A DNA stretch of 64,000 bases from Raillietiella orientalis. Its lineage: Eukaryota. The stretch spans positions 2,542,001 through 2,606,000 of the forward strand of contig JAYWIR010000002.1 in assembly GCA_036172245.1 (NCBI GenBank), read 5' to 3'. Shown piece by piece: positions 19,579-55,659 of this stretch (its first letter is position 1; each line of letters begins with the position of its first letter). The notes beneath the pieces were generated by a model that saw only the letters and a list, made by a program, of their open reading frames with translations, searched no databases and was not told the DNA's origin. Made by a program: the position numbers and the translations under genes.

Positions 19579-20241
19579 ACTTACACCCCTAAATTTCAAA
19601 TTTTTGGCATGAATATTCAGGGAAGTTTCCCTAGTGTACAGCAAAGAGGTTTGAACGTGTTCAATTGCACACAGTGCATTCGAGAGAGTTTTATAACACG
19701 TCGATGAACATACCATTGTAACGCCCAACAAAGATATTGGTCACCATTTGTACCCCAATTGCCAACTGTGGAATATGGAATATTTAGGAATACCTAAATG
19801 GAATGGCTTAAATCGGCCTTATTTCAACTTCTGACATTCACGAAATCGTTGTACACAAAAACTAAGCATGCTTGTTTTTGCACGATGTCAAAATTATCTT
19901 GGATTATTTAGTTGAACTTGCAAAAAATGCTATCACCATACCATGATAACGCTGAACAATTTACATTTCGATTTTTCCTACTTCACTTTTATCACAACAT
20001 AATTTATCCGGTATTAGCCGACGCCTTTCAAATGGTGCCACGGTATATGCAATGCAGAAAGTGGTTTGCTCATCACGTTAAGGATGATTTTAAACGGATT
20101 CGCACGTCATTATACATAATTTATCAGAACAAAAATAATTTCTTATATAATTTCAACGTGTACTTTGCACTTCAGTAACCCTTGTATTCGTTTTATTGTA
20201 CTCAAATGCTTCATTACGTCACCAAAAAGGCTCGACTTGAA

Positions 20242-33922: not shown

Positions 33923-33925
<3 letters not shown>

Positions 33926-33996
<71 letters not shown>
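33926..33996. repeat. (CA)n microsatellite
   Basis: About 35 CA units; source of the spurious HTHTHT ORFs. Confidence 0.95.
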
Positions 33997-33997
<1 letters not shown>

Positions 33998-35907
33998 CCT
34001 TCGTGGGAATAATTCGATGCCCGTCAATTCTATTCAAAAGATGTTTGAATTGTGTAGAAACGAATCATATCGTTTATGACCTTTGGGGAACACAAAGGTC
34101 ATTCTGTCTTTCTGTCTTTCATGCTCTTGCTTTTAACATGTTATCTGAAATGCCACGAATATGAAAAACATCTGAAAATTTCGATATCCGAACATCTTTG
34201 CAATCCACTTCTCCGGCTTCCACGGCTCTTGCGTTTCCCAGGTTTCGCTACACACACACAAAAAAGTTGATCAGGATTATTTTCCATCCAGTTCATTGTG
34301 AATATGAAACCGTTTTGATTATTTCGAGATCACTTGGATCGCGGTTAAGGTCCTGGAAAAAATCATCATTCCCCGGGATCAAGTCTAAAATCTGAACACT
34401 TACGGGTTTCTCCGTATTCCATTCCCACTATCGTAGTTTTCTGTGTGCAGATCCGGGAAGTAATCATTTGGTATTTTTTCCAACAGATGACTCAACCTCC
34501 CATGCGTGCCTGAGAAACTCACGCATGTCGATCGTTACAGACTCGCACAGCATCGCAGCAGCATGCATCTACCAAGTTTAGGTTTTGTGAGAACGTACCT
34601 GTAGACAAACAAAGACTGAAGCATAAATCAGCAGCTGAAATATGGATGACTATAAAATGACGTATGGGTTTACTTATTCTGCCGTGTTGCAACGCTATTG
34701 ATCGGATCGGGTCCACAGAGCCTACCAAGGATACGAGAACGAAGGATGCCTTTTGCTGACTATCAGCTAAGCGAAGTTTTCTGCTGAAAGGTCAAAGGTA
34801 TCAAGCAGCTGACTCCCGATATTCAGAAATCAAAGGATTCCCCGATGAAAAAAAAAAAAATGTCTTCCTTGTTTTCAAGTTTTTGTTTACACGCGAGGGT
34901 GGGAAGGACTACTACACCACGATGCCTTTAAAGGAAAATGTTTAAAGCCTTTAAAGGAAAATGAAAAAAAAAAAAAAAAACTCAGATACGGCGGCTTGCA
35001 AGGCTATTCTGTGTATGCTGTTCTCAAAGACGTTCGCTCGTCTTCAATGAAGGATCTCGATGAAAAGATAAAGAAACAGATAACGAAAAATTTCGAGATT
35101 ACTGATTCGATCGATAGAATCACTGTTACTTCTTGATTCTTGGTTTCACTTTTATCCTGCTGCAGTCTCATGAAATCGCACTGTGATTCCTATACAGTGA
35201 TGATCCCGTTATACTACTAAAAGCAATATTCCTTCTAACCAGTACTGTATTATTTTCAGTATTTTATTTACACAGATAATGCCTTAAACAGATATCTACT
35301 CATTATGGATTCAGCACTGGGGAGAATGCACAGACTTGAGAACAGGAAAGATCATACATTCCGTCCATCTTCATAAGAAAAGTGGCACTATAGAGTCCCA
35401 ACCCAGGTGAGTTTCAAGAGACTCCATCTTTGTAGAAAGTAGAACACATAGATTGGTTTAGCTACTTTCGAAGCGATCTAGCAGATCAGTCTAGTGAGAA
35501 CCTACATTACTTACATGGACAATGAAGTTGCCATATCAACCGTTTAAGGAAATTCAAACACTAGGGGAACGGACGTTCTCGATGTTTAGATTTTTCGAGT
35601 TCCTCCAAAGTGTCTTCCAAGGAAGCTTATTCCAGCTATGTTGCTCCCCAAAACGACGGTAGAGCAAATGGAAGTTTCGATTCCTCATCCTCAAGTGGAA
35701 CCAGAACGTTCGTTCTTCTTTCACGGAGTCAGGGCTGCAACTCATGTTCGCCTTCCGGCACAAAGGAAATTTCGAGCTAGCATTTGAGATGCTCCGTGAG
35801 GAGGAATGGTAGGTGTCTAAAAGCAATCATCAATTTTTTTTTGCCGGATCTCTTGGACCGAAAATCTGTTCCATTACCAATCAGCTTTTCTGTTTCCATG
35901 GAAACAA

Positions 35908-35950
35908 ACACACACACACGCACACACACGCGCACACACACACACACACA

Positions 35951-36000
<50 letters not shown>
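35908..36000. repeat. Interrupted (CA)n microsatellite
   Basis: CA run with CG/TA interruptions. Confidence 0.95.
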
Positions 36001-36005
<5 letters not shown>

Positions 36006-37179
36006 CTGAACTTTACTGTTCTGAAGTTTTGGATGCAGGTTACAAAACGGAGAGAATCAAGGACCCCAGATGTACACTCCGAGCTGATGGAAGGAGAGCT
36101 GAATCGCGCGCTCCTCGTTGCTGTGCTCTGCGATCAGTGTGCTTCCACAGGCATCCCGAGGAACCTCAGAAGCATCAACAAGGAAGTGATGCGTGTACAT
36201 AACAAACCGCGCGCTTTGAAAAACGGTCCAGGTTCACACTATCCGACAGGCATCGTGAAGCAAGGCACCGAGTGAGCGGGGCACGCGATGCAAAAAAACG
36301 TCTTCGTTACAAAGCCGTCATCCAATTCGAACCGAAACCTTTTGCGCGCGCGTATCTTCGGCTGCGGAGGGAAAATCTTTTCAGTGCAGAACGGAATGAA
36401 AGTGGGATGCACTTTAAAAAGGTTTTCTCTCTCTCCCTCTCCCTCTCTCTATCATTACAAACCCCATAGATGGGGGTCAATGCAACGTAAAGCATCCCTT
36501 CTCGTTGGACAAGAAGCTTGTACAGTACATGGGAATTAAATCGATATAACTGTTTAAGTGTGTCTCGGTATTCCTTCCTCGACGACCAAGAAAGGCACGC
36601 AGATGAATACTTTCAAATGTGAGTAATCAAACAGAAGCATCCTTCATCCCATCTTTCTTATCTTCCGAGATTCGGAAGGAAAAGCTAATGATGCGTTTTC
36701 TGCTCTCCTCGTATAATGAAAAAGAGAGGTCTGCGAGATCCTGATGGATCCATTATTTATTGCAGTTTAAAGCAATCCTTGCAGGATTTCGGAAACAGTT
36801 CCTGAGAGTGTTTGTGTCTGGAGTCCCGAGCATAAGGGAAGAGCGTCGATGCTCTCCAGATCCGGTTAATCAGAGTTATCACAGTGCCGGAGACAAATTT
36901 CAAAAGTTCCCACTCCTCTGCAAAGGAGGAGGAGAGGGGGGAGGCTTGGCTCTTTCTTTTTCCTTTTTGTTGAAGCGCAGGAGAGGATACCCAGGGAAGA
37001 ATCGTCAGCAAGGCCGTATGACCTAGAAAAACGCAGTGAGAGACCGAGGAAACAAGACTCTGACCTCTCATCCTCAGGCAAAGAAAAATATCTCTGGGCA
37101 CTCGACGTCGGAAGCAGCTCGTCCACGTGTGCTCTCGTGACAGGAGCTCGCGGTTTTCCATAGCTAGGGTGGGTAGCTG

Positions 37180-37600: not shown

Positions 37601-40600
37601 AACAAACTGAGGGAGGGAAGAAGAAGTGGGATTGCTACGGGAGTGACTTAGAAAATACGGAAGGAGCAAAACCCCTGGAAGGGTAACTAGGGATGTTGTT
37701 GTTGCAGATTGCATGTGGTACAAGGGATGCTGCTTGGCTGCGCGCATGGGAAGGAAGGGGGGAGCGGTGATTTTGTGCAAGTGGGCGAGACCAGAGAATT
37801 TTTTCTGAATGTAAAGAGATTCCCCAAGGGGTGCGAAGTCTCCCTGGGATAGAGAAGGAATTCGGAAACAGGAGCTCTCTCTCGCGGTTGGATGGGTATT
37901 GGACCAAAGCGACAACCTCAAAAGGTCTGAGGAGATGAGTCGGAGGATTCCAAGCTGAGTTGAGCTGGTTTCTTATGAGGAAGGGAAGGGGAGAGGGGGA
38001 ACAATGCGCATAAAAAGCTGACGGAGCAAAACCTGCAAAACGTAAAGATGGTGGAAACAGAATTTCAAACCGGCTGGAAACAGGATAGTGACTCAAAGGA
38101 ATGAAACAGATGCGTGAGGAACGATGGGAAATAATCCGAGTCTGCCCGCAGCGTGACGTGCAAGGAGGGCCAAGCTTCGAGGATATTAAACGTTGTTTAA
38201 GGATGGGACGGATTAGGGATTGTTTCTTGTGGCTCGGTTATTTTTCATGCTAATCTCGGGTGGACTTATAACGGCGCTATCGCTTTTCAAGTGATCTCTT
38301 CGGAGATAATGTTGTACTGACGGGAGGAAGATGATTCGTTGAGAAGAGTTCTTAGCAATGTACGCTCGTGAAACCCCATATTTTTTTTTCTTTTTTTTAA
38401 AGGGGGGAGATTGCTTGAGTGATGAGGATAAACAGAAGGGTCAGGATACGATTTAGCGCTCGACTGGAGATTCTAATCTAATTTTGTGCCTGAATTTTTC
38501 ATCGGAAGCATTCGAGAGTCCGTTTTTTGTGATTACAGGAGCATTCTGAGGATGGAAGACTACGATTCTTCCTTCATATTTGGGCCCAGTGAGGAAGAGA
38601 CTCATTCTGGATGAGAAATCCTTCCATATTTAGGAGATAGCGGAGTTCGACAAGCCCCTTGGCACGAAAGGCATTCACTTTGGAAAGGGACCTTGTCCAG
38701 ACGGAAAAGAAACTCATCCTCCAGGCATCGAGCCCTCACGCATCATCCAAAGAGATGGAAAAGCGACCGCCGGATTGCAGAGTGAATCGAACTCAAGTCT
38801 ACCTTATGCTGCGTTTGCTTGGCAACCACTGGTCATCTGGAGTTTGCGAAGTCAAAGGTCCGGGCTTCCAGATCCCAGCTCAATGCTGCTACCGCTTGAA
38901 CTAAGAGACGTGGCAAAGAGAATAAGGATAGCCATCTTCAGGGAATTGGATGATCTGACGAACACAGGTCCGAATCCTCCTGCACCCGAGTACGTCGATG
39001 CCTTGTTTTGCTGTGTGTCCAGAAGCCAGGAACGTACAAACCAAACCTTCCAGAGGGACGAGCACATCCACGAGACTGCGACCGCAGGAAACTGCTGACT
39101 ACAGTTTCACAGGGGTTTTCCGTGGCGAAGAAAGGTGGACGCCGGCTCGTCATCTTTGGAAACGTTGGTCCGTATCCAGCAGAAGTTTCTTCCGCATCGA
39201 GGGAATGCCTTGATGCCGCAACTCATTTCAGGTGAAATAAGGCTATCGTAAGTGAGAAGTTCAAAAAGACGACCGGAAGGTAAAAGACCTTATAGGATGA
39301 TGTGGTCACGCACGAGATAGTGTAACTGGCTCGCGAAAACTTCGAGGACACAAGTGGAGGTTCACCGCTAGTATCATAAAATCCACCACCTTTCGATGGG
39401 TGCGAAACCTACTTTTCGTCGAGTGCTTTTCGTCATGTAGGCTTTGAACTGTCCCTTCAGATGCCTTCAAAAACAAATTCAGGGACTCAGGATACATTCT
39501 GAAACGTACGACAGCCGCAAAGGGCAACATGAATCGAAAGCGGATACACCAATCCGCAGATGGCTGCGGGGTCTTTGTTTTGACGGCGAGACTTAAAAGC
39601 CGAGGTTAAAGTGGTCCCCATGACGCACTTTGCTGCAAAATGCAGGAAGATGCGATTCGTCCCTATCCTTGCTGAAACCGAATGAAGTCTACCGAGCCCT
39701 GCGGTTTCGTTTATCCACTAATGAACGGACCATCGTTACATTAATGCATAGGACGTGCAAAAATCTTCCACATATCTACATCGAAACAACAGCATTTGCC
39801 AACTACGCTGCAAGAACGTTCAATGGAATTCAGAGATGCCGGATAATCCCTCTCGGAAACGGAAAACTTCCTCTGTGGAAGCGAAAAAAAAGAAGAAAGA
39901 AAAAAAGAAAAACATGAAGGAAACATGGGCAAGGTAAGGGCAACGATTCTTCTGGACAGTGTCTTGTTTTCTTTTAAAGGGGATGAAGCATGGCTGGAAC
40001 GAAGTAAAACTTCAGACAGGAAAAAATTCTTTCACATCATCCAGGGTTGTTCAAATCACACATACACCTTTCTTAAGGAGGAGAACTCGAATCTAGGAGT
40101 CTAGGATCGAAACCAAGGAAACGCTCCCATTAGTTCCCTGCCTACCCGTGCTGGAGCAACGAAACCTTTCGGAGCACCACGCGATCGGATCCTGGAATCC
40201 AAGGTGTCTGTCTCTTTTTACATGCGGTCCAATCTACGCCAGTTCGGTAGATTTAGGGAGCAGCGTACACTTTGCTGTCTCCGAGTTGGATCTGTAGGTG
40301 TTGGCTACACGTCTGCTTAAATTAATCTATCGGGATGGGAGCCACCTATTGTATAGGTGAGACGCTTGCTCTCCGCCGCAGCGGCAACGAAGCTGTTGCT
40401 GACGAAGCCAGGCCTCCATCGGCCTCTGCGCACTGCTTGCTGGAAGGAGGATGACAGCGAAACGTTCGATACGGAAGGGAATGACAGAGAAAAATCATCT
40501 CCTTCTGCATTCGAAGCTGCGAGGAGTGGACAAGAACGACGGTGGTGACTGACGAGTAATGAGCGAGGCCGTTCCTGAATTAAGGCTGCCGTATTTTCTC

Positions 40601-41046
40601 TGAGTTCACTAAAGCCGAGGGCATTTGAAATGCACGTTCCCTTCCTCTTTCAGGAAAAGTAAAGCGAATCAGAAAAGTTGAATGGCGAGAGCTTTTTTGT
40701 TTTTTAAAAATCTTGGTTTCTGACCCGCTCTTGCGCTCTTTTCTTTTTGCACTTGGCAACACTGCTCTTGAGAGGAGCAGTGCTGCCAAGTGCTGCAGTG
40801 CGAGTGCCACTTACAAAGAACAGAAAGACTTGATGACCTCCAGGTCTAGTAGTGGATAGAACAGATACAAGCTCAGGATATCGCGGAAGGAGACCAAAAG
40901 GTGGAACGGAAGCGGAAGGGGAGTTTGCGATCTAGTAGGGTATCGAAGCAGGTGCACCACACATGGCGGTCATCCCTAGTCAGGCCATGTCGAGACCGTG
41001 GAGAGCTCCATGAACGACATCTTTGGGAAGATAATTCTTCAAGACT

Positions 41047-41580
41047 GGGGGTACCCCGGAAGGGGACCACCCTATGAATCCACAAGGGATGCGGAGAAAG
41101 AAGTCCCTTCCTTTCACGCCTGGGAGGGATCCCCGAAGGGGACCCCCACCCTGTTGTCTCCGAAGGAAACCCCGAAGGGAATCTCCTTCCTTTTTCTCTC
41201 CGGGGGGAATGCGCAAGGGAACCGCTCCTGTTTGCTCCTCTGAAGAGAACCCCGAAGGGACACTTCCGGATTTTCTCTGAAGGACGCTCCCCGAAGGGAG
41301 CGGCATGCTTCTTGCACTCAGGAGAGGCATCATCAATCCACTAGCTCCATGGTACGAGACGGAGGGTCCTTTCCCCCCCAGAAGGGAAGAAACGGCTCCG
41401 TTTGCACAACCGGAGGGGAACCCCAAAGGGAACCAGACTTCTCGATTCTGTTTCTTGGAAGGAACCCGAAGAGTCGACTCCCTATCCCGGCCACTCATCG
41501 GGGGCATCCGGTTTGAGCCGCTACCATTTTCACCGCACCCGAATGAATAGGGAGCGACCCGCGTCATCTTGCGGGAAGAA
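41047..41580 (+). repeat. Tandem hairpin array, copy 1 (~11 units, ~39-44 nt period) plus unique 3' segment shared with copy 2
   Basis: Loop centres near 41059, 41135, 41174, 41214, 41254, 41293, 41381, 41425 and 41468. Unit consensus GGAGGG-AA-CCC-GAA-GGG-AA-CC.CTCC followed by a pyrimidine-rich linker. Confidence 0.8.
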
Positions 41581-41649
41581 CTCGAATCCACGACGCAACC
41601 CCCATCTCTCGGCGTCTATTCTTTCAGAGTATTGGAACTTGCGAAGCTT

Positions 41650-42990
41650 GGTGGTGCCACGCGCGGAGACTGTGACCACATGGCCCCGAAGCAGGCTGTG
41701 TGGAGATCACATCTGCCTGAGTACGAACGCTTGCGACCACCTCTAGGCAAGAAGTGCACACGGAGAGGTGTATCTGCTCCTGCCCGGGGAACTGGAAAGC
41801 GCTCCATCTCAGAAGCTGCGAAAGCTGTGACCAAGAAGCAGGAAAGTTCGAAACAAGCGCCATGCGGGCCATCGACTCGAGCTCGACGGTATCTCCAGTC
41901 AAGATCCGCCTCATGACACCCTTTTGAGTCAATCCGGGGCTCGCTTCAGAGGTTCACTGATTCTCAGAAACAGGTTGTCCGGATATCTCTGCAATGTTTA
42001 TCCAGGTGTCAAAACAGCCTTTCTGCCTTCAGGTACAACGTTCCTCATTCAAGCTTGGGCTGGAATGCAGTGACCTCTCCTTCAAGACTTTGCACGATCC
42101 AAAGATCCTTCATCCGATCGCTCCAGTTTGATTAACCGCCATGGTATCCATAGGGTCGACACAACATTCCTGGTAGCTCCAGAAAGTAGGCTGATACTGG
42201 CACGAGTGGATGCTCTTTCTCGTCTATTTTGAAAACTGAAAGAATGCAGAGATGAATTTCTTCAAACCTTCTGAACAGGCTGAAGACATGATCCGTACGG
42301 ATCTGCCCTTCTTCTGGGAAAGTAGAGGTCGAATGCTTGTGGTGACTTTGAAAAATCGGTAGATGCGGTCGAATCCCATCATCAACAGCTGCACGAAATG
42401 ATCTGAGAAAAATCGATCTCACAAGAGAACCACATAGGAGTAGAGGAGGAAGAATTCCCGATAGAGAAGAGTTCCTCATAGAGCATGCATTAGACGATCC
42501 GATCGACTAGCAGACCAATAGTCAAGCGGGAGAATAAACCCCGGCAAGCAGCGTCACAAAATCAGTAAACGTACCTCGTCCCGCAAGCAAACCCATTTAG
42601 ACCTCAAACTCGATAGTTTCAGCATCAGATAGTTCATAAGAGCATCCATCATCACCCAAAGAAACCTGCAAAGCGGGCATCCACATTCTTCCAGGATCAT
42701 ACTGAGGTAGCTTACGCTTCCAGTGAACATTTTTGCAGAGCGATTCTGCTGCGCTTTGAGCCTTCCACGTAGATTTTTCTGGAACGCACGGCCAATCCGT
42801 TCCACTGAAATCTGCGCTTCTACGAGGGTCGGGAACTTGCAGATGTTTCAGGAAGCTCAAACGCCCGCTAGGGGACGTGGTAGCCACGTTCCCGTAATCA
42901 TTCAACCTCGGCCACGGATAGACGCATGTGCCAGGTAGCGTGGAGCCGATCGCTGGGGGATGCAGGAGGCAAGTAGGCAGGGATTTCTAT
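41650..42990 (+). mobile_element. Decayed Ty3/Gypsy pol (RT thumb - RNase H - integrase)
   Basis: In order: VWRSHLPEYERLRPPL (cf. YYRRFIP.YA.IA.PL), RLSGYLCN/LSRCQNSLSAF (frameshifted; cf. RPVAY.SK.LS.AQ.NYSAF), IPGSSRK*AD (cf. IPG..N..AD), FHVDFSG at 42763 (integrase HVDF.G). Confidence 0.55.
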
Positions 42991-43379
42991 CGAGTTCGAG
43001 TCGATGGCGCGCGTCGGATTAGTGTTCGAGCACTAATTCAGTAGCCTAACTCTGTTTCGAAATGGTAGAACTGTTTAAATGGTGAACCTCTGTTTAACCA
43101 TCTCTGTTCAAATGGTGAGCCTTGACCTGCCCACCTGGAATTTTCATCTCCTAGGTCCTCCTAGGTTTCATCCCGCATGTCTCTTTTTCCTGTGCAACGG
43201 TCAATAGCTCGTCGTCCGCCCGCGTGACGCGCGCCCAAACCCAAAACGGGGAGGAAAAAATTTCCTAGTGCAGTATGGCCGCCGAGTCCAAATCATTGCC
43301 GTCGTCCGCACGTTGTTCGACTACCGTGCCAAGCAGCGATGTGCGGGCGACCCGGATGTGTTACCATCCACGCCGTGTG

Positions 43380-44010
43380 GACGGAAACATGCTACTTGAT
43401 GCTGCCTTTGTTCCGTGCATCCAGCTCTGTGTAAGGGGTCCACAAGGGTACCGCACGTGCAAGGGAAGAAAGCGCGTCCCTTGTAGGCAGGTACCGCGGT
43501 ACTACCGTTTTAGCCTTCCTCTCGAAATTCGATGGAATATTCGATGAAAGTCTCGGGGTTCCAGAAATTCGCTCGCAATTACTCTTTAAAGTACAGTTAT
43601 TGCGAAAAGACAGCCGTAATTTGCTCCCTCGCAACACGGCTCTCAGGAAAGCAAGGCCCTTGACGCTCGACGAATTCATCAGCGAAAGATGGTGTTGCCT
43701 GTTTGCTTTGAGAGTCCGCTGGAGGTACATAAGGATGCAATCAACGGACAACGCAACCGGTGAGAGGGAACCATCGAATTCTGTTCCTAAGCAAACAGGT
43801 ATACGTGGCTGTAGGTCATAAAAGAAGAGTCAACATCCAGGATCATTAGCCGCGAAGACAAGTCGAGGGAGAGGTCATTTCTTTGAGCGAGAGACGAGAG
43901 CAGTGAATTTCGTTGTTCCTGAGTGATGGAGGAAATAGTGGATGCTGTTCCTGTTAAAAGCAACTGCCATACACAAAAAAAAGGAAGTCGAGGTTCGCAT
44001 CCAACGGAAG
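43380..44010 (-). mobile_element. Decayed Ty3/Gypsy reverse transcriptase
   Basis: RLPFFCVWQLLLTGT (cf. RFCVDYR.LN..T), LSLDLSSRLMIL (cf. FS.LDL.SGY.QI), SVDCILMY..HHLSL..VKGL (cf. YIDDILIYS..HL..V..GL), PTRDALSSL (cf. PT..LRSFL). Confidence 0.55.
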
Positions 44011-45429
44011 GCATCGTGAGACTGGATGCAGTTCTGCTTTCTGGAACTTCGCTAACTGAGGGATTCTCGGTCGCTCTTCGTAAACAACTGGTAGGTTAAG
44101 CACAGATCAGGAAAGAGGGCAATGATTTTTTTTTTCCACCACAAATGAGGAACTAAGCTTTTCCGAACTATCCCTACCTGAGCTCACGGTTATTTAATTC
44201 GGAGACTCCAGTGGCCAGAGAGCATTTCGTTGCCGAAGAAAGGAGAGCGAAGTCAGAGCTTCAGTTAAGCGATTGACTCGAGCTCAACTGCACGATAAGA
44301 ACTGTCACCTTTTGAATCGATTTTGTATCCTCCACCCAAACACTCCTTGAGGCGAAGGTTCTTTGCTTCCTGCGTGGCTCGATGGGGACCCGGCACGTGA
44401 GTGAGCGTTCACGGGCAACTGGGTATCGGTTCATCACAAGCTGATCTTCCACAGAGAATGAAAGATGAAACCGTATCCCAAGACCATGTTCTTGTGTTGC
44501 ATCTGCATTGAGAAACTTCTGTGGCTGCTTCGGTTCAAGGGTGTCGAATGGTCGCTGGGATCTTCGAGGGCAGTGGTAGGTTTGGTTAAAGCCGAGGCAA
44601 TCGTGGGGCAAGCGCAGGAACGGAAGAGGTTGACAAAGGGAATGGAAGGCGTAGCCATCAATCAGAGGAACTCATGATCCAGAATCCCGTCTTCGCTCCA
44701 GCAAGGGACCGTCAATTTTCTCCACACATGGGGTGCTGATGCTGCAGCTGGATCCACTAAGTATCGGGGAGGTTGAGGAGTCGGAGAAATACATCGTTCA
44801 TGAAGACAGGACTACAGTGAGGCAGAAGTAACATCTACAATATAGGGAGTGTCTCCTTCCCTGATTTTTGTACGTCTGTGACCAACAACAAGGAGACATC
44901 CCAAGTCCAAGTAGGAAGTTTTTCATGCATGTATCCCCATAAGGTTCTGATCTGCACGGATCTTATCTGCAGCAGGAGTGCCACCTCGTGCACGTATCCG
45001 TGCGTCTGCGCTCCCCGAAGCTCCCCGTTAGGAGTGCGTCCACTCTTTTACGAGGTCTCGGCCGGCAAGACGAAAGGGCTGCTTGGGTGGACATCACCAA
45101 AGAACCCAGTCATCACGAAGGAGGAGGGGACACAGCAGCCTGTCTTCAGAAAGATCAGCTTGCCCCAGGAAGATGCGGTTCAGACTCGCGCGACTTCGAC
45201 CGAAGGTCTACCTGGGCCGAAGAGTTCGCAGCCGGACTCGTCACACTTTCCGAGTTCCGAACGCGGTCCCTGCGGCAGAAGATGTGCTCTGTAAAGAGAA
45301 GATCCGTGAGACCTCCCCCAATCAGGCGGAGATGCCTTGGTGTCGAATCTTAAGCTCCTGGGTCCTTCAGCTTGCTTCGCCTAAGGATTCTGGGAGGATC
45401 TTCAAACCTGCGGAGTCCCGGAACCTCTA

Positions 45430-45800
45430 GGAGCAATCAAAAGGAATGGATTTCAGGGAAGACCTGCGAGACTCGAGACGCCACGGTGGGGGGACTCCAC
45501 TTCCTGATCTTCGGCAGAGCCGCATCTCGACTCTTGCACGCCCCCGCGGATGGGTGGGCGGCAGATAAATCAGCTGTCCCCCTCTCCCCCTTCCGCGTAT
45601 TCGGCGAAGCTGCAGTTCGACCAGCAGCTGGCTTAATCCTCTGCAGCTTTCGAGCATATCGGAGATGTCCTGGATGGCGAGGGAATCCGGCGCGCAGGTT
45701 CCTGAGAGCACCGAGCCTTTCGCCCACGTGCTACCCGATCTGCAGGGCTCGAAGAGCGCGCGCGAGCTCTTGCTTGAAGACCTCTTCCTATGGCGGGAGG
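45430..45800 (+). mobile_element. Decayed Tx1-like ORF1 (gag-like zinc knuckles)
   Basis: EWISGKT (cf. GIWTG.R) and YRRCPGWRGNPARRF..TCYPICRARRARASSCLKTSSY (degenerate tandem CCHC knuckles); lies upstream of the ORF2 remnant at 47.6 kb on the same strand. Confidence 0.35.
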
Positions 45801-47619
45801 TAGGAGGATCTCCTTTCGCGGAAGCTCCCTACTCTTCAGAGAGCCTCCCAGAGGTGGAGAGCGCGGGTCCACGGGCTGGAGGAGGAGGCTACGAGACGCG
45901 CGCAGTGGTCTAAACGGAGGTCGTCCTCGTTCCTTCCCGAGGGCGACCGGTTGGTCCAGGTGTTCGAGTCCCCGCGGTCGTTCCTGCTCCTCCCTATTCC
46001 TCCCCGAGGAACTCGCCCTCGGCCTCCGCCCGCGTGCTTCCGATGCTTTTGAGCGCCACTGATGTTTGCCCCCTCCATGCCCAACAATCAGCTGGGAGAA
46101 GAGTGGGAGAGAGGGGTGGGGAGAGAAGGGGATCCCCACGTGCGAGCAACCCTTCGAGTTCATCCCAAATCTTCCTCGTTTTTGACGGATGTGCTTCCGG
46201 ATTTTCATCGGCATCTCCCGGCAATTACTTTGGTACGAGTTTCAATTTATCAGTGTACATCTGTTCCGTAGATTTGATTTCATTCCTCCTTATAGGCTTT
46301 CCCGTGTTATCGTGATTCCATGGTTTCCTTGCTTGTTCTCCTTACATTTCCCAAATGCAATTTTCTGCGGCATCCCTGGGGGACGAAGGAAATCGCAGAT
46401 CCGGGCATTTGTCTAACTAACTTTGCCACGTGATAATGAACTTCGATAAATACGCACGAGGATTCCCCCCCTCCCGCTCCCTTCCCCTCTCTTCCTCTCT
46501 CCCTCTCTCTCTCTCTTTATTTCTTTTCCTTTTCCTTCGCCTTTTGAATTTCAGATGGAGGAACCGTGTTGTGATTCCCACGCTCAGCCGTTCTCCTCCG
46601 CCGTCGCTTCCTTGCTCCGTCCCAGGAACGCCTCGCTTCCCGCCATCCGTTTCCAATATCTCCTCCTGGATGACACCACGATATGCTAATGCTCGTTTGG
46701 AAGGAAGAGGGGTCTTCCTCGCATCTCAGCTGATCGGGAAGCCGGGGTTCCTGCTATCGCGCTCCCTATTTTTCAGATATTCCTTATCACGTGGAGGAAT
46801 TCCTAAGGCACCTTCGCAGGAAAGGATAATCTGAATGCCTCGCTTCCTCCCCTCCTCTCCTCCCTCTCCCCTCATTCTTTTTTCTCATTCTTCTTCTTTC
46901 TCTTCTGAGTCTTCTCGGGAGTCGATCCTCCTGCGGTCGGATGCGGATGCCTCCCAGAAAGCGGTGAGCGCGCGCGAGGGAAGGGTACGGACGGCATCAA
47001 ACCTCCCTCTCCTGTGATCTGAATCTTTTATCTTTCCAAACACTCTCAGGCCCTGGAAGAATAGACGCAGGGCTCCTCCTCTCGCGCCTACGAATCACGA
47101 CGGTTGCTTAGGCGGCGCCGAGCCCCATCCGTCGAGTGATGTCCTCTCTCTTGACGAGGACTTCTCCAAACTCCCTACGAGGTGGGATGCGAGCGCAGGA
47201 AAGAAAAACCGTTGGCGAAGTCCGTGTGGTCCAGTTTTCGGAGTCCGGTATGCTTTGTTAGGGTCCACCCCTCAGCCGCAGCTGCTGCATGGGTGTTGAA
47301 GAATGTCTGCCTTCATGCCTGCTGCTTACCAAGTGACCGCAGAGTGGTGTGTGACCTGCTTTCGGGATGGGTTTCAGGGCATCGTCATCAGTCTCCGAAG
47401 GCGAGAGCGAGGAATCGCTAAGAATGCTCAACCTTCTACTCGTACAGTCAAGGTCTTTCGGCTGAGATCAAAGCACAGTCAAGGACGCTCGTGAAACTTT
47501 TGGCTGTTCCTCATCCGGAATCCCTTCGCCGCAAAACTCATGTTGCCGATGTCTGTGGTGACTACGGAAATGGACTACGTTGGGAATGGGCCTCGAAGCA
47601 CCGGGTTCGACTTCCCTAC

Positions 47620-49120
47620 ATTCTAACAATGGGGGCGCTTGGTCTCCGCGGTCGTTCTCTAGGCATACAGAAAGGGATGCCAGGCATCCGAAGATTCGCC
47701 TCTCCATGCGTGGGAGGGAACTACCTTTTCCTTGACCCCAGCCGCGGGAGCTAGCGGATGGTGGGAAGTGCTGCTGACGGGTGACGAGAATTTTCGAGGA
47801 TTCCCTGAAAGCAGCGCTTCCAGCCGGGCATCCCACCAGGAAAGGTCCTCCGAGAGCACCCTTCTAGACTATTACCGTATCCTGGACGACTTCTCCTCAT
47901 CTTTCTTCTTCTACCCTGGAGGCCCCATCCAGCAAGACCGAAGCTTCCGCACACCTGCCCTCTTCGACTCGATTGGTGCGCCCTCTTCCGGGCAGCGAGT
48001 CGGGAAAGGGAAGTTACACGAAGGATAAACTCCGGAACCCCTCGGCCTTGGTGGCACGCGCCGTTTCTCACCGCCCCCACCGGAAAGGACAAAAAACGTA
48101 ACTAAGAACGCTGTTCCTGGAGACACACGCGGCCTGATTCTTCACCGGAATCCTGATCTCTGCTTGAACCGCGCTTCGTTGGTTCGGGAGGCTCAGGAAG
48201 GAATGCGTCTCCGAGTTGTCGGCTCCTTGCTGTGGTCAGATCAACATCGGGAGTGCCAAAGAAAGAAAGCTACACTTTTCCTGTGCACCCGAGACAAGAA
48301 ATGGTGCAAAGCACAGAGGAAGCAGAGACAGGAAGCAGAATGGAAGAAGGGAGAAGTCAGCACTGCTTTGCTCCTTCACCAAACTGGAAGCTTCGTCTCA
48401 TCGGATGATCGTGCCGGAAGCTACAGGAAAGTTTAAGGAAAGGAGGGGAAACTTCTTGAAGGATGAGTCAAGCAACAGGGTTCTTATTTCTCTCCTTCGT
48501 GTTTTTCTGGCACGGGGACACCTGAGAGGGGGCTGCGAACTGTGCTCTCTTTAGGCTTTGATAGCTTCAGATTGTTTCCCTTTCCTGATTCCCTTTCCTT
48601 GAGATTCAGACCAGAATCTAAGAAAGAAGGGGGAGGGGTGCGTCTGTCGCACCATGGGAGGAGGAGGGATTGAAGCCACAAGAGTGGAGAAGGTCGGAAG
48701 GAACTAAGGCCAGCCGGAGCAGGCTCAGAAACTTCTTTCCGCGAGCTTGGGACTCGTCCAGGCAAATGGACCGAACGGACTCTAGGATGCTCAGCAGCTT
48801 TCGCTCCCCTGCAGGAAAATAGCCTGGTGACGGTCACGGGGCATGCTGATGGTCCCGATCTCTCGAGATTGGGAAGTTTGCCTACACGAGAAGGACCTGA
48901 AAAGGAGAGACAGACGGGTCCGACATTGTGTTTGTCGCTTTCCAGAAGAACCTTCTACAGCCTTAGACCGGTTCTCAGAGACCTTTTCTCCTCAATTCGA
49001 CAAGAAATCACGTAGTCTCCCTCATAGGCAGAAACCTCTCCTCCTCTCGCGACAGCGCGTCGCGAGCCAGATTCCCGAGCTTTCCGGGCGAGCCGCAACC
49101 TTGTACGTTCCCGTCTTCTC
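47620..49120 (+). mobile_element. Decayed L1/Tx1 ORF2 (AP endonuclease, linker, RT N-terminus)
   Basis: In order: GRLVSAVV, VLLTGDENF (cf. GDFN), LLDYYRIL..FFF..QDRSF (cf. L.D.WR..YTF..IDRF), RQEAEWKKGEVST (cf. RA.W.EEGEKST), ANGPNGL (cf. APGPDGL), SQIPELSGR (cf. Q.GF..GR). Confidence 0.6.
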
Positions 49121-49899
49121 CCTCCGTCCATCATCTCAAAATCCTGCAGCTTCTTCAATGGACATGGGAGGAGCAGGAGGGATCCCTGGAGGTAGGTGCC
49201 TCAGAGTTCCAGCTGCTTGGTAACTTTGAAGTGAATAAAAAAAACATCCCTAGCGAGAGGAGGGGAAGCGGGAGACGGGGATGTTACCGTGGCTGCGCGA
49301 AGGGTGACGCGAGTGAGAAACGCGGAACGCTCCCGTGGAGGTGCGAGGAAAGGAAGGAGACACGTTGAACTGCAGGACTTCGCTCATGTGTAGATTGCTG
49401 TTCCTCTTTGCTTCGTTTTCCCTTCCCTTTCATCCTCCCTGTATCCCCTGTTTCTTCCAAGAAAAGAAGATCCGTGCCTCCGCGGTTGCAGCAGTCGGCA
49501 CAAAGGAGATGTTATCCAGTCAGAGGAGCCCTACCGCAGCCGCGTTCTTCCACCTCCGAGATTCCAGGAGGACTCCCTGCTCTGCCTGGATTCCACGAGG
49601 GAAGCGGAAGGACCTCTTTCCCCTGCCTGTCGAGAGCTACAAAGCTCAGGCAAAGCGGGACCCTTTCTGATCCTGCAGACACCTCCTCGATCTGGGATGT
49701 TGGGAAGTTTGAGGGATGAGTCGAAGGGGGAGTCAGGACTTCTTTTCTGGAAACAAGCGTGGTCGGTCGCGGTGTCGCGTACCCTCCGAAGCCAACTGTC
49801 ACCCGCTGCTCACTTCCTCACTGTTCCTCCTCGTGACCGGGAAAACGCTTTAAGCGATGCTCCCAGACCTCCACATTTCCACCATCCATCGGATGTCAT

Positions 49900-50370
49900 T
49901 CCCGGAGGATTTGCGCTTCCTTCTCAGAGGGGTGGATGCTGAAAGACTGGACCTCCAAACTCCTCCACTTCTGATCCTTTGACTTGCCCGGGCCCGCATG
50001 TCTTGGCGCTGAGTGCGCTTTCCCGATCCCCTTCGCCCGGCAGCTCAGAGTCCGGCTCTCCTCTCTGAGCCCATCGTGAACGGCAGCTGCGGGCGCCTCT
50101 GACCGACAGGCGGATCCGACAGAGCGGCAACATCGGTGATGATTTCAAGCCAAAGACAGTAACCTTGATGGGGACGGGCGCTCTCCTCGACTCATCGAGG
50201 GGGAAAAGCGAAGTCTTCACGCAGATTCTCGCACGAGATGGCATTTCCCATGTTTCCTTGAGGAAGTGGACCTCGCCACTCTTCCGGGTGCTTGCAGAGG
50301 GCCGTGCGCACACGGTCGGAGAAGGGAAGTGGGGGGTCTCGCTCGGACGATGCCGACGCTGAAAGACTCT
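49900..50370 (-). mobile_element. Decayed L1/Tx1 endonuclease N-terminal fragment
   Basis: FSVGIVRAR (cf. I.S.NVRGL) and EVHFLKETW (cf. DI.FLQETH). Confidence 0.35.
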
Positions 50371-51149
50371 CTCCCGCCCCCTCTTCTGCACGCAGCCACA
50401 AAGGCAATGGGCATTTCGCTCGAAGTAAAAAAAGAGGCGGATCGGGATTTATCTGTGATGAAGGGTTCTCCGTACTGAGGACAGAGGAGGAGGGTAGCTC
50501 CTTCGCTGAACTCTACGGAGGAACCGTCGGAAGGAGCCGCTTCGCCTGAGGCTGCCACCGCCACCGCCGCCACGTTCCGAACGAGGAACGTGGCGGCGGC
50601 GTTTTCTCACCAAAAAAAAGAAAAGCAAAGGAAAGGAAAGGAAAGGAAAACGCATGCGACTGCAGCCTCTCAGCAACTGAGACCATCGATTTTCATAAAA
50701 GCAGCAATGAGACTCCGCAACCGTTTTGCTCGGAGTGCCATCCTTCCCTCCCGGCGCGCGGCGTCTGTGAATGGAAGAGGCCCTGCGACCTCACTTGTTC
50801 TGCTGCTCATGAGTTTTGCTTCACGAGGACACTCCGGGGAACCCGCTTATTGTTCGGCCTTGGGGCGGTCGCGACATGGCACAACGTGTGGCATGAGACG
50901 CGACGGCATCGAAGGCTCGAAAAGAGCAGCACCCTCATACGGAACGAGGCTGCACATCGACATCGGGATCGGCCAAACAGCTGCGTGGAAACATTCAAAG
51001 GGAAGAGCCGTCATTGTTCTCCCGCAAGGACTAAGACGGACTAATTGCGTTCATGCATCCCTTTTGTTCTAGGACCTTCGAAATCCTCTACGATGAACCA
51101 GAGCAGAGGAAAAATCACTGTAACAGAAGTCATTTATGGCTTTCCCTCA

Positions 51150-51590
51150 TAGCAAAACCCCTCCCGGACCGAGAAAAGGTCACGTCCTGAGTCGGGCGAT
51201 CAGAGCCTTCCCCGTCCGGCGGCGAAAATGGATGTCTCTCCCACCCGCAGGTTTGTCCGCTCGACTTATCGTCTGTACGAGGAAAGTCTCCCAGGGACCG
51301 AGTCGACTGCATGGTCCGCGGGGAGGTGCGTGGCACGGGAAGAGTCACTGAGCCACACTGCAACTGGAACGGGAAGAGAGGCACGACAAACCGGTCGTCC
51401 GGATCGAGGAAGCCAACCCATTCCCGGAACAGATTCAAAGCCACACTCGTATTCTCGGCAATGCCAGGGAAGAGACAACATGGACTCTGCCTTACCTGAG
51501 GAATCTTCTCTGGAAGCGCGAGGGGAGGCAAGAAGAAGGACGGCCCGCCACTCCGGCGACGGAGGGCACCTGCATCCGTCAGAGGGATGG
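51150..51590 (-). mobile_element. Possible decayed L1/Tx1 RT N-terminal fragment
   Basis: VDSVPGRL (cf. Q.GFVPGR) and PDGEGSDRP (cf. LD.EKAFDRV); weak. Confidence 0.25.
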
Positions 51591-51913
51591 TCATAGGACG
51601 CCGAAAACCATGGAATTCGGCAAAGGACGAAGTATCTTAGGAGTACCGGAGGTCGTTAAGCGATGGGCGGTGCACGCACCAATGTGGAGAGCGGTGCGCT
51701 CCAACACAAGCCGCTCGAGGCAAAGCCGCTGGAGGTGCTGGAAATCCCTTTGACGGCTCTTCTGCTTTCTCTGCTCTCCTTTCAGATCTTTTTTTTTCTT
51801 TTTTCTTTTGGGTTCGTCAAGTGCTGAAGAATCATCCACCTCCGCAGGGGGGACTCACGAAGCTCTTAAACTCTGTCCAGGCCACCCGAGGGTGCCTGTC
51901 AGCTCTTCAGGTT

Positions 51914-52310
51914 AGGGGGTAACCCCGGAGGGACCACTCTATGAATCCAGGAAGGCTCTGGAAAAAGGAGTCCATTCCTCTTACGCTTGGTAGGGAATCC
52001 CGAAGGGAACCACCTCTTCCTTATTCTCTCTTGAGGGGTCCCCCAGAGGGGGATCACTCCTCATTTCTTTTCAAAGGGAACCTGAAAAAAACCCACTCCT
52101 GGAATTTTCTTATCTGGAGGGAACCCGCAAGGGAACTGCTCCTGGTTTCCTCCTATGAAAAGAACCTCAAAGGGACACTTCCCAATTTATTTGAAGGGCG
52201 CTTTCCGAAGGGAGGTCGACTTCCAATCACGGTCAGTACGAGGGCAACCGGTTTCCGGTTATCACCAGTGCCGCACCCAATTGCTCGACCTCGTGGACTT
52301 TTCCGCAGGG
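51914..52310 (+). repeat. Tandem hairpin array, copy 2 (~8 units) plus shared 3' segment
   Basis: Loop centres near 51927, 52002, 52045, 52127, 52169 and 52207. Linkers align with copy 1 (ctatgaatcca; gggacacttcc; gtcgact.cc.atc.cgg.ca..ggca.ccggttt..ccgcaccc). Confidence 0.8.
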
Positions 52311-52334
52311 GCGTGATACTGGGTATTTCGTAGG

Positions 52335-53053
52335 AAAACCTGCAATGGGCCCCGGTGCTCATAAACATTCACACCTCCTAAAAGTGGAAGGAGTCGGCGT
52401 TGATGCTGCTGCACTGGGGCCTCCCGTGCAACAGCCGCCGACATCTGTGGACATGGGGATTTGCGAACCCAAACTGTGCAAGGTGTAGGGAGCGGGAATC
52501 CCTCCAGCAGCTCCCAGTGCACTGTGTTGCCCTCCGGCCCCTTTGGGGACGCTTTGCCGCGACCCTTGAAACCCTCCGGCGGCAAAGCTAGAGACGTTTC
52601 GAAGCGTCTCTTCCTGGGCAACGCCCTCACGCCAGCTGCATCCCTAGCAGCATTTTGCTGCCTATGCGGGATCGTGGTTGCATGGAGCAACGCCAGAGGA
52701 GGTCAGAACGACAGAGACGCCATCTATTTCTCTGTCCTCTTCATGAGGACAGCATCAAGATGGCCCCATCTGGGAGTCTTGAAAAAGGAACTTGCCGGCA
52801 TCCTTGTAAGGATACAGAGAACACCCTCCAGCACACAGTGATCCCTTCCCGAATCTTCTCCCCCTATTTTTTGACTTTGTATTTTTTGTTTCATTTTTTT
52901 TTTTTTTGTCTCCCCTTCTCCTGTGCTGCCGACGTGAACCCCGCTGACCTGAGTGCCAGTTCCTGGCAGGTTCTCTCTCGTATTTATAAGCAACGGGGCA
53001 AGATCAAACGTCCAACCACAGACAAATATGTTTATTTTTTATGAATAAATGCC
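52335..53053 (+). mobile_element. 3' fragment of the same L1/Tx1-like family as 1606-3586 (zinc knuckle + 3' UTR)
   Basis: LLHWGLP..HLWTWGFANPNCARCRERESLQQLPVHCVALRPLW aligns with the 2940-3085 translation. Both copies share the stop context gtgatcccttccc and a pyrimidine-rich UTR, and end at AATAAATGCC. Confidence 0.8.
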
Positions 53054-53559
53054 TCGGAGTGACCAATTGTCAACCAGTGCTGCACTCGGAGCCCGTGGGT
53101 CAACCAGCGTTATCCTGAGGAGAGAATTCGAAACCCATGACGCACCCATTCCTCAGCGTGCCGGCTCAGGATCTGGGTATTCAAACCTGCAATGCTTGTT
53201 ACCGCAGGCGGAGCCACATGTCCTCCAACGAGGGCGCGCAGGTTGGGTCACTTGCGGAAGTGAACAAGTCCTCGTTAGAGCTCAGCCACTCGTGGGCAAC
53301 AAAGCGCAAACGGAGATGAAGATGGTGGGATCTCCCTCGGTGTTGGTTGCATCCTCCGGAACATCCTTCGTGAAAGACAAGCACGAAAGAGTTTGTGCAG
53401 AAAAGCAGGAAATCAAGACTTCCATCCAGAAAAAGTTTCGCCTGGTTTGTGGTCAGAAGACCTCTCTGTCGGGAACGTACCTTTGTCCACTTCAAATGCC
53501 CCTTTGTCCTTTGAAAATCTGAACAGAAGGCTGAATAAGAAAGTTCATGAGTAACAGCA

Positions 53560-54700
53560 TCATCAGTTGAGGTGTTCTCTTTCTGGAGAGTCAGCAGCCC
53601 ATCTTATACTGGTGGCTTTGTGAACTGATGGGTCTTCGAAAGATCGTGATTCGATATGAATTCCTGGGAATGTTCTCGAGAGTTTCGGCTGATGAGCATC
53701 CTCATCCTTCCACCTTCTGCAAACAGAAAATCTCATACCAATCAGTAGCCGGTCCACCCGGCTCTATGGAAATGCTCCCCATTCCCCATTTCAAGGAGTC
53801 TCTCATGATCGTCATCTCTGAGGACTTCGTGGAAGAACTTTCGGTCTCCGAATTTTTTTCCATTGAATTTGAAAGTACAAACTGTCCATCTTCTTTCGGA
53901 TACACTCCGGCCAGCTACCTGATCGATCTCATGAGACAGCCTTCCAAGAGCACCACGTGACCACAGAGACTATTGAATGCCACAAAGAGGACATGGAGAC
54001 GTTCTGATACAAACATTCCTTTCCACCAGCAGTAAGAATTGCTGCTTGTATCTTTTCTTGCATCTAAGGGAGAGCGTGCAGGATCTAGAAACGAGAGTCC
54101 AAAATGGACGTTGAATATCCCCGGGGTGTGGTCTTACCAGCTTCTATTCCTTATCACACCCTTGCTTCTCTCTAAGACGGAGGCGCCAAGTCGACCAAAC
54201 GTGGATTCGCCGGCTAATCAGTCTCCCTCATTCTTTTTATGCATCCCTCGGACTTTTCAGTGAAGCGCGCATCAGATCACTCCTCCCAGATGCTCATTCG
54301 GCATGGATAAAAAGAGCAAACATCGAGGAGAGTTGACGCATCCCCAACTCATCTCTTTTTGCGGGGGTGGAGCGCTCTACGATTCATCGCCATAGTATCA
54401 CTCCAGCAATCCGTGATCCAAGGATGACAGATGCTCAGGCGGGAGTTCTGGCGTCGCACTCGGCACAGTATGAACAATTCGGTGAGTCTCGCGTACATGT
54501 CCTTGCCGTAATGTATATCGGAGGAGATTGGTACCATCTTTTTTTTTTTCTCTCTCCACACAGCAAGGAAATCCGAAGGATCTCAGTTCCTTGCGTGACC
54601 GATCTACAGGATACAAGGGACCTCCTATATGCCAGGACCAAGGCTTCCAACGTTGGCTGTGCTCCAGTGGCGACAGCTGGTAAGCTGCATCTCGGTGTAG
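53560..54700 (-). mobile_element. Decayed Ty3/Gypsy pol (RNase H - integrase core)
   Basis: TLEALVLAYRRSL, KRWYQ, DIHYGKDMYARL (RNase H-like), then ERLHVLF, DRSGSWPEC and LKWGMGSISIEPGGP (cf. RLHIDF; D..SKWPE; RFG.P..IVSDNGP). Confidence 0.45.
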
Positions 54701-55317
54701 CCACATCCATCCTTTTTATTCCTGGAATTTCTCAATGGCAGCTGACGCATTCTCCGATGGGCAGGAGATGCCCAGAATGATCATCCGACTGCCCTTCGGC
54801 AAGATACATTCCAGTCTGAATGGGTGAGTGTACTCCTGGAACAACTTGGATGGAGGCTGTTAGTTCCCCTCGATGCTTGCTGCTGCTTCCAATGTACGGA
54901 TGTACCAAAGTGCAGCACCGCGAGGGTGTACCAAAGTGTACTATGTGTGTGGGTGGTTCCAGCTACGGATATCACAAGGTCAAAGAACGCAGCATCTCCT
55001 CGAAGTTGTTTCCAAGCTCTGTATTTTCTTTTTTTTTTGGTTTCTTGGAACGGAAGATCATGTTCATTCTCTCACACTGTGGTATCAAACCACCCATCGC
55101 GAAGGAGCACAGGTGTCTATCGATGCGATCCGGTTGCCAAGGCAGCAGCGTCTTCAGAAAATCCTCAAGCTCTGTGCTCATCATGCTGTCGTTGGTAAGG
55201 GTGGTCGGCGAGTATAGGACCCAGTAAGCAATATGCGCGTACAATAGGCACTGACTTCCGTTCACTCCTCGAAGGAAAGAGCGACGAGGACAGGAAGTGG
55301 AGGAGAAAGAGGACTGG

Positions 55318-55385
55318 AGGAAGGAAGAGGAAGGAAGAAGGAAGGAAGAAGGAAGGAAGGAAGAAGGAAGGAAGAAGGAAGGAAG
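55318..55385. repeat. (GAAG/GAA)n polypurine tract
   Basis: Directly visible purine-only repeat. Confidence 0.9.
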
Positions 55386-55659
55386 TGGAAAATAAGACAC
55401 GGTGGTCCAGCAGCAGCTTCTCCGATTCGCATCAGCGACAGTGCCTCGACTAACGAGTGGGCTTGCTCCTCAGGTATCCGGGTATTCTGCGTGTCTCTCT
55501 CTCCTTTTCGCAGAGGGGTGAACACGCACAATGCACACGTTCGCTCATCTGACCTTGAAGAGGACTTGCCATCATGTTGAGCATGGCTCGGCAGACACGT
55601 CACCCGAGAGATCCAGAAAAAAGGAAAGAAAGGAAGAACGAAAAAGAAGTCCCTAGAGA

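Follow-up and report, generated by a model that had tools for sequence, protein, structure and literature searches.

In hominoid VNTR-composite retrotransposons, exemplified by SVA and LAVA, the central VNTR is described as consisting of GC-rich units of 30-50 bp, with unit types that are non-randomly ordered and keep their order between copies, and with unit numbers that shift at the DNA level via short homologies (PMC4432496). Tetris, a foldback element of Drosophila virilis, carries internal tandem repeats that seed satellites (PMC4079207). Here we analyse two loci of a 64-kb window, i.e. the whole stretch of DNA considered, which probably represent old, decaying copies of a dispersed repeat of ~0.4-0.5 kb, composed of an ordered ~40-nt minisatellite of heterogeneous units followed by a tail of ~79 nt.

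Two homologous copies and their units

The first-pass annotation had placed a diverged, same-orientation pair at 41047-41580 and 51914-52310, and the homology is borne out with copy A at 41036-41544 (+ strand; array and tail, 509 nt; from self-blastn, tail alignment and a unit HMM) and copy B at 51904-52281 (+ strand; seven units and tail, 378 nt; from self-blastn, tail and global alignments and the unit HMM). The underlying self-blastn match joins 41036-41300 and 51904-52214 (67% identity over 314 columns, E 2e-21) and is, apart from CA microsatellites, the sole match in that search of the window. Globally aligned, the copies are identical at 216 of the 272 aligned columns (79%), with 54 further gap columns. 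They form direct repeats ~10.9 kb apart, with a GC content of 51-58%. The homology of ~380-510 nt ends sharply on both sides, and the flanks of A and B are unrelated, as judged from alignment scores of 12 upstream (11.9 +/- 1.7 in shuffles) and 8 downstream (9.9 +/- 1.7); the copies are 21% diverged, and the element borders are fixed only to about +/- 10 nt.

At E<0.05, the unit HMM recovers eight units in copy A and seven in copy B, all on the + strand, while the best match elsewhere in the window reaches only E 0.15. The previously proposed ~40-nt period thereby stands, in degenerate form. Units are spaced by 38-45 nt, each copy having one gap of 74-75 nt and A also one of 132 nt. They are degenerate, are built around the core CCC-GAA-GGG and occur in the same order in A and B; the core loop differs between units (GAA, GGAA, GCAA, AGA, AAA, GGA). 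Tandem Repeats Finder reported no array at a score of at least 30. Allowing at most one mismatch, CCCGAAGGG occurs 21 times as compared to 11.2 +/- 3.6 expected; 11 of the 21 occurrences fall within the two arrays, as do all five exact matches. A peptide repeat was rejected, in agreement with the first reading, as the period is not divisible by 3 and the copies carry their open frame on different strands, - in A and + in B. Protein-level searches with the - strand ORF across copy A and the + strand ORF across copy B each returned 0 matches. An exhaustive search returned one candidate, the 1021-aa tandem-repeat product P0011, which was discarded as spurious, since its E of 1e-14 adds up ten instances of the same weak match and a single stretch reaches a BLASTP E of 0.4.

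The units pair one to one in order, the extras being one unit in B and ~165 nt in A. Counterparts in B exist for the array part at 41036-41310 (+ strand), comprising A1-A6 and a degenerate unit at ~41070-41110, as established from the global alignment and unit folds. The A-only segment at 41311-41465 (+ strand), delimited through alignments, starts with ~50 nt lacking the unit pattern (41311-41360), followed by A7, A8 and the start of A9, and resembles copy B units only as paralogues (score 20 vs 10.6 +/- 1.7 shuffled). Conversely, B4 at 52059-52100 (+ strand) coincides with an alignment gap block without counterpart in A and retains no core stem (MFE -2.4 kcal/mol). In sequence and alignments, B7 at 52180-52224 (+ strand) is a hybrid, its 5' half corresponding to A6 and its 3' half to A9 with the junction within the common core, and marks ~165 nt that were lost or gained through inter-unit recombination. 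Recombination within the repeated core has added or removed entire units. The shared tail spans 41466-41544 in A and 52205-52281 in B (both + strand; local score 26 vs 12.0 +/- 1.7, with a maximum of 19 in 300 shuffles); a common unique tail had indeed been noticed in the first pass, but its length is about 79 nt rather than ~100 nt.

Surroundings and origin of the copies

The surroundings of the copies are non-coding, with a LINE relic. Translating 38001-55500 in six frames, with stop codons entered as X, revealed no Pfam family; in a control, this read-through procedure recovered a decayed RVT_1 at 1611-2282 (E 2e-10). The Gypsy pol formerly assigned downstream of copy A accordingly finds no counterpart, no Pfam family and no reverse transcriptase being detected in six frames of 38001-47002. 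The L1 3' end reported downstream of copy B is on the other hand a genuine LINE 3' end, as 52370-52944 matches 2907-3477 (blastn, 60% identity, E 8e-33). It belongs to a 5'-truncated 3' fragment of a non-LTR retrotransposon located outside of the repeat at 52370-53058 (+ strand), recognized from blastn, protein-level matches and a shared 3' end motif. The relic starts 88 nt downstream of copy B, and this spacer is similar neither to the LINE nor to the copy A flank. The other non-LTR copy, at 1590-3592 (+ strand; Pfam and sequence), retains the second half of RVT_1, a weak zf-RVT and the 3' end. This element is also 5'-truncated, as are thus both LINE copies of the window, which leaves no LINE 5' UTR to set against the array.

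On the best reading, A and B would be remnants of a mobile element, either non-autonomous or fragmentary, that contained a minisatellite. The ancestral unit probably carried an interrupted palindrome, with a purine-rich arm before and a pyrimidine-rich arm after the core CCC-GAA-GGG, and a linker, again pyrimidine-rich, downstream of it; the array would have grown via slippage or unequal recombination. The segment would then have dispersed as, or within, a mobile element, likeliest a non-autonomous one or a non-coding piece of a larger one, and both copies are presumably inert today. The first-pass suggestion of an undescribed non-autonomous element is congruent with the discrete, dispersed character of the repeat (confined homology, unrelated flanks), its mobility being inferred from two copies. 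If this reading is true, the loci are ordinary repeat debris, mainly useful to repeat annotation of the source genome.

Affiliation to established classes and relatives was also assessed. As regards a SINE, ARAGORN detected no gene resembling a tRNA across the window that could serve as head, Rfam gives no match either, and as for the tail, neither element nor flank shows similarity to the LINE copy that lies within 1-3600. Neither tail is followed by a run of A, and searches of the copies revealed no poly(A) tail, target-site duplication or linked ORF. An inverted-repeat search at both loci returned no border pair common to the two copies of the kind that a MITE or foldback element would carry. 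Searching metagenomes with a 20-nt stretch conserved in A and B gave four loci, all ~25-nt chance matches, and a two-unit pattern retrieved two unrelated bacterial loci with 12-nt coding repeats from genomes and 0 loci from viruses; these collections contain almost no eukaryotic genomes, and their blanks weigh little. In the literature, the core motif was encountered only in primers and unrelated sequences.

A same-orientation pair 10.9 kb apart in a repeat-poor window could alternatively originate from a local event, namely a single copying to a nearby site via template switching or ectopic repair, in which case no genomic family would exist. The proximity and common orientation of the copies, the lack of a third copy within 64 kb and the lack of relatives in the collections searched are congruent with such a duplication. 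The latter blanks are however of little weight given the near lack of eukaryotic genomes in the collections, the copies differ by 21%, and a GC-rich segment with internal repeats next to a LINE relic is what mobile-element debris typically looks like; we regard this origin as unlikely.

We similarly find it doubtful that the copies are the LTRs of a single old, non-autonomous LTR element extending over ~41036-52281. Direct repeats of 0.4-0.5 kb have typical LTR size, they share orientation at a distance of 10.9 kb, and no other such pair is present in the window. Nevertheless, no Pfam family is detectable in six frames between the copies by the method that finds decayed reverse transcriptase elsewhere, while gag-pol should remain visible at 21% LTR divergence, and 10.4 kb would be an unusual length for a non-coding interior. 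Reading the sequence by eye, we observed neither TG...CA ends nor matching flanks of 4-6 nt, and neither a primer-binding-site-like start after A nor a purine tract directly before B, all of which is a weak argument given the border uncertainty and the 21% divergence.

Hairpin potential and the proposed RNA structure

The first-pass annotation proposed a candidate structured RNA, be it a retroelement leader or packaging signal or a lncRNA module. Under selection and transcribed from the + strand, the array would then present its GC hairpins, with U-rich linkers in between, as a multivalent protein-binding platform. The claim that the copies keep the stems is overstated, good hairpins being limited to some units: A1, A2, A3, A6 and B3 form hairpins well below shuffles at z -3 to -4. 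A4, A5, A8, A9, B4 and B7 on the other hand remain within about 1.6 sd of their own shuffles, the predicted folds of B1 and B6 differ from the proposed unit hairpin, and A4, B4 and A9 have a disrupted core stem, as B6 has in part. Hairpin survival is uneven between corresponding units, with MFEs (kcal/mol) of -18.0 and -8.4 for A1/B1, -16.3 and -8.9 for A2/B2, -10.3 and -17.9 for A3/B3, -6.8 and -10.6 for A4/B5, and -17.0 and -10.5 for A6/B7. Copy A is somewhat enriched in stable hairpins; 32-nt windows with an MFE of at most -14 occur at three sites in A, at one in B and at 28 in the other ~27 kb scanned, i.e. three sites per 0.5 kb as compared to a background of ~1 per kb. In the units of this same copy, however, the - strand folds equally well or better than the + strand, and the whole-array MFEs, calculated for the two strands against dinucleotide shuffles, all fall within 2 sd (z -1.16, -1.99, -0.11 and +0.44).

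Comparisons with known families and among units similarly argue against a selected structure. Using the Rfam 15 covariance models at gathering score, 0 matches were obtained over the entire window, so no family therein matches either array; at E up to 1, only IRES_FGF1 appears, on the - strand of copy A and with 17.3 bits where the gathering score is 38, and copy B yields none. Among the units there is no covariation beyond column composition, in an analysis that took in 15 of the 16 listed units (A7 omitted): 67.7% of cells are paired as compared to 68.2 +/- 2.0 when shuffled (332 of 500 shuffles as high), with a covariation score of 0.226 vs 0.222. Partner columns slid by -1, +1 or +2 leave 60-64% of cells paired, which we read as equal pairing. 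RNAalifold shows no strand preference, the + and - strands giving -64.1 and -58.8 with five and six double changes, respectively.

An uncorrected permutation at first sight favors + strand pairing between the copies, since 45 of 49 pairs are retained as compared to 37.8 +/- 2.3, a value reached in 8 of 4000 permutations, with nothing comparable on the - strand. We consider this signal false, because changes of the reference copy itself cannot fall in its intact pairs. Assuming an equal split, so that each lineage bears half of the 56 differences, 45/49 and 40/49 pairs are retained in the two directions as compared to 42.9 +/- 2 expected, or summed 85/98 vs about 85.8, a test of low power given only two copies. 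The compensatory changes are at chance level, with one double change vs 0.86 expected and two vs 0.45 expected. The C-G to T-A swap highlighted in the first pass is present in the sequence, but about one is expected by chance. The T-G wobble stem quoted alongside was found as described, and several C-to-T changes leave G-U pairs, on the + strand only. An energy-retention test (3/1000) was set aside as confounded by ancestral state, and we attribute both this and the uncorrected permutation signal to ascertainment, with the equal lineage split assumed. The substitutions between the copies fit neutral decay. More generally, with two copies and a structure drawn from one of them, a permutation test of retained pairs is misleading, the spurious signal here being 8/4000.

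Aggregated, Rfam, fold energies, RNAalifold, covariation, retention and compensatory changes leave the structured RNA, packaging signal or lncRNA module without support, and we consider it improbable. For the decayed repeat, an ancestral unit with an interrupted palindrome means that the hairpin potential would be inherited from this unit and from the purine/pyrimidine composition, rather than being upheld by selection. Least likely of all, the copies would belong to an undescribed non-autonomous retroelement family with a body made up nearly throughout of an ordered row of small GC hairpins, which in the + strand transcript serves as multivalent landing platform for partner LINE proteins, the changes tolerated as G-U pairs and the LINE relic close by being traces of this; the recognition signal of a non-autonomous element would then reside in an internal tandem array instead of a tRNA-like head or a LINE-like tail.

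Comparison with known systems

The Xist A-repeat is a multivalent RNA of 7-9 units, with short GC-rich hairpins and U-rich linkers. The arrays are similar to this layout on paper, and differ by having neither an Rfam match nor evidence of selected pairing. At the level of loops, the C-GAA-G DNA mini-hairpin and the C(UUCG)G RNA tetraloop are very stable motifs, not families. Read along the + strand the unit core is CCC-GAA-GGG, and along the - strand it is CCC-UUCG-GGG, and therefore either strand could form a very stable small hairpin; the loop itself varies across the units.

Among mobile elements, Tetris is similar in that the element body is largely made up of internal tandem repeats (PMC4079207), whereas the long terminal inverted repeats of foldback elements have no equivalent common to copies A and B. 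The repeat further differs from SVA and LAVA by being without Alu-like, SINE-R and hexamer domains, by the absence of a visible poly(A) tail or target-site duplication, and by residing in a different organism, so that sequence similarity would not be expected. Because these other VNTR-composite domains and the hallmarks of LINE-type insertion are absent, the array architecture, while corresponding to that of a VNTR-composite element, signifies resemblance and not membership. This resemblance encompasses GC-rich units (here 38-45 nt, GC 51-58%) that are ordered and conserved in order, as well as a change of unit number by microhomology, as in the hybrid B7, joined inside the common core (PMC4432496).

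Extent and unit anatomy of the two copies

Comparison of the window with itself returned a same-orientation match of 41036-41300 with 51904-52214 (67% identity over 314 columns, E 2e-21), and, by this comparison and reading of both stretches, the two hairpin-unit arrays concerned, copy A and copy B, are the sole non-microsatellite repeat pair in the window. A more permissive search did not yield a longer match. In global alignment, 216 of 272 aligned columns are identical (79%), with a further 54 gap columns, and homology resumes in a shared tail, 41466-41544 versus 52205-52281 (score 26 against 12.0 +/- 1.7, maximum 19, in 300 shuffles). The element thus spans 509 nt in copy A (41036-41544) and 378 nt in copy B (51904-52281), with a copy-A-only segment, 41311-41465, between the array homology and the tail. 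Similarity remained at shuffle level between the two upstream flanks, between the two downstream flanks, and in comparisons of the LINE with the 88-nt spacer 3' of copy B and with the 1 kb downstream of copy A. No related copy was detected in the collections searched, which hold little eukaryotic DNA, so that these blanks weigh little.

The register of the units becomes visible when the copies are printed 40 nt per row, each unit consisting of a pyrimidine-rich linker, a purine-rich arm (GGAGGGAA-like), a CCC-GAA-GGG core and an AACC.CTCC-like arm. A unit profile matched eight times in copy A and seven times in copy B at E<0.05, on the + strand only, while the best match outside the arrays in the whole window reached E 0.15; the profile was made from 16 hand-cut units of these same arrays, and its informative part is the absence of matches elsewhere. 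Units are spaced by 38-45 nt, apart from one 74-75-nt gap per copy, each containing a degenerate unit, and a single 132-nt gap in copy A. With up to one mismatch allowed, the window contains 21 instances of CCCGAAGGG where 11.2 +/- 3.6 would be expected; the arrays account for 11, among them all five exact matches.

Neither array was reported by Tandem Repeats Finder at a score of at least 30, and column identity among units averages 58%; the units are thus already heterogeneous. Since they match one to one between the copies in global alignment, with order kept, this heterogeneity is older than the split of A and B. Copy B carries one additional decayed unit, B4, and its last unit, B7, is a hybrid, with the 5' half resembling A6, the 3' half A9 and the junction within the shared core. 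This hybrid, which accounts for the ~165 nt extra in copy A, indicates recombination between units.

Pairing and folding of the units

The first-pass annotation had proposed, as one candidate, a structured RNA with conserved stems. In a covariation test on 15 of the 16 units (A7, which would need a large gap, was omitted), 67.7% of cells were paired versus 68.2 +/- 2.0 with shuffled partners (332/500 shuffles as high), and the covariation score was 0.226 versus 0.222. With the partner displaced by -1, +1 or +2, 60-64% of cells remained paired, and covariation was as high or higher. Thus, in the outer 'stem' a purine arm lies opposite a pyrimidine arm, and composition alone makes them pair.

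Between copies, the unit hairpins of copy A retain 45 of 49 pairs when read in copy B, and those of copy B retain 40 of 49 in copy A. Permuting all 56 differences gave an expectation of 37.8 +/- 2.3, with 45 reached by 8/4000, and an energy version of the test likewise looks significant. We discarded this apparent significance, as the null is wrong: any change that occurred in the reference copy is necessarily absent from the intact pairs of that copy. Placing half of the differences, which assumes an equal split of changes between lineages, the expectations became 42.9 +/- 1.9 and 42.9 +/- 2.0, with 45 reached by 846/4000 and 40 or fewer by 470/4000; summed over both directions, 85 pairs are kept versus ~85.8 expected. 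For compensatory double changes, one was observed where 0.86 would be expected, and two where the expectation was 0.45 (279/4000). Of the features singled out earlier, the C-G to T-A swap is indeed present, as is the G-U stem, but such changes are expected from decay at this divergence. The commonest difference is C-to-T (C in A and T in B in 14 aligned columns, the reverse in 2). This asymmetry, which could reflect strand-biased deamination in copy B, has no parallel in G/A, with eight differences each way.

Rfam gave no match in the whole window at gathering scores, and a single sub-threshold one in the arrays at E up to 1; tRNA-like genes were not found. Against dinucleotide shuffles, whole-array folds gave z of -1.16 (A+), -1.99 (A-), -0.11 (B+) and +0.44 (B-). 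Among single units, A1, A2, A3, A6 and B3 are far more stable than their shuffles (z -3.1 to -4.2), A4, A5, A8, A9, B4 and B7 lie within ~1.6 sd of theirs, and B1 and B6 are predicted to fold differently from the proposed unit hairpin. Counterparts diverge widely in energy, for instance A1 at -18.0 and B1 at -8.4 kcal/mol. In copy A, unit folds on the - strand were at least as good as those on the + strand. Hairpin sites (32-nt windows, MFE <= -14) number 32 in 36-64 kb, three in copy A, one in copy B and 28 elsewhere, a modest enrichment in copy A only. RNAalifold on both copies, where as in every structure test two sequences confer low power, gave -64.1 kcal/mol with five double changes on the + strand and -58.8 with six on the - strand; strand preference is absent, and long-range pairs replace several unit hairpins.

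Surroundings and coding potential

Six frames of 38001-55500, with stops read as X, contained no Pfam family, leaving the 'Gypsy pol' assigned downstream of copy A unsupported; handled likewise, 1-3602 yields RVT_1 (E 2e-10) and a weak zf-RVT. The LINE 3' end placed downstream of copy B was confirmed, 52370-52944 matching 2907-3477 (60%, E 8e-33) and continuing by eye to a common end motif at ~3592 and ~53058. Both LINE copies are 5'-truncated. The one at 1590-3592 (+ strand, 3' end ~3592) is a non-LTR retrotransposon retaining the second half of RVT_1 (E 1e-11) and a zf-RVT under cut-off (E 0.002); the closest relative of its reverse transcriptase is a metagenome protein (70% identity), named relatives reaching at most 32%.

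Host exons sit in the left half of the window, both on the - strand: those of a DEAH-type helicase gene at 7880-12385 (OB_NTP_bind 7880-8251, Helicase_C 8915-9391), where two more open frames, 9427-9795 and 11924-12382, lacked a Pfam match, and a TauD-family dioxygenase domain exon at 20242-20760 (E 1e-9). Composition is sharply split between gene-bearing 6001-26000 (29-34% GC, CpG o/e 0.58) and 36001-64000 (47-59% GC, CpG o/e 0.88). Two (CA)n microsatellites lie ~2 kb apart at 33902-34008 and 35896-36016. A near-perfect inverted repeat at 40749-40793 (19-nt arms, 95% complementary, 7-nt spacer) is found ~250 nt upstream of copy A and is absent upstream of copy B.

The arrays are non-coding, since the unit period is not divisible by three, on which ground a peptide repeat had rightly been deemed unlikely, the open frames lie on opposite strands (- over copy A, + over copy B), and relatives of neither translation were found. 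The sole match of an exhaustive protein search, P0011, a 1021-aa predicted 'protein' built of a ~70-residue tandem repeat, was rejected as a tandem-repeat artefact: its E of 1e-14 to the copy A - strand frame is the sum of ten weak identical matches, a caution for searches with repeat queries.

Relation to known repeats

Interpretation as an LTR pair, as a SINE or as a MITE or foldback element failed in each case on at least one tested defining feature. Copies A and B fit a discrete dispersed repeat built around an old minisatellite, whose palindrome-bearing units follow a fixed order and at present undergo neutral decay amid non-coding DNA littered with LINEs. Membership in the VNTR composite retrotransposons is out of the question, because their other domains are missing here and the host is different. 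Their VNTR domain itself is the closest analogy, being portrayed as 30-50-bp GC-rich units in a non-random order that is conserved between copies, with remodelling at the DNA level via microhomology (PMC4432496).
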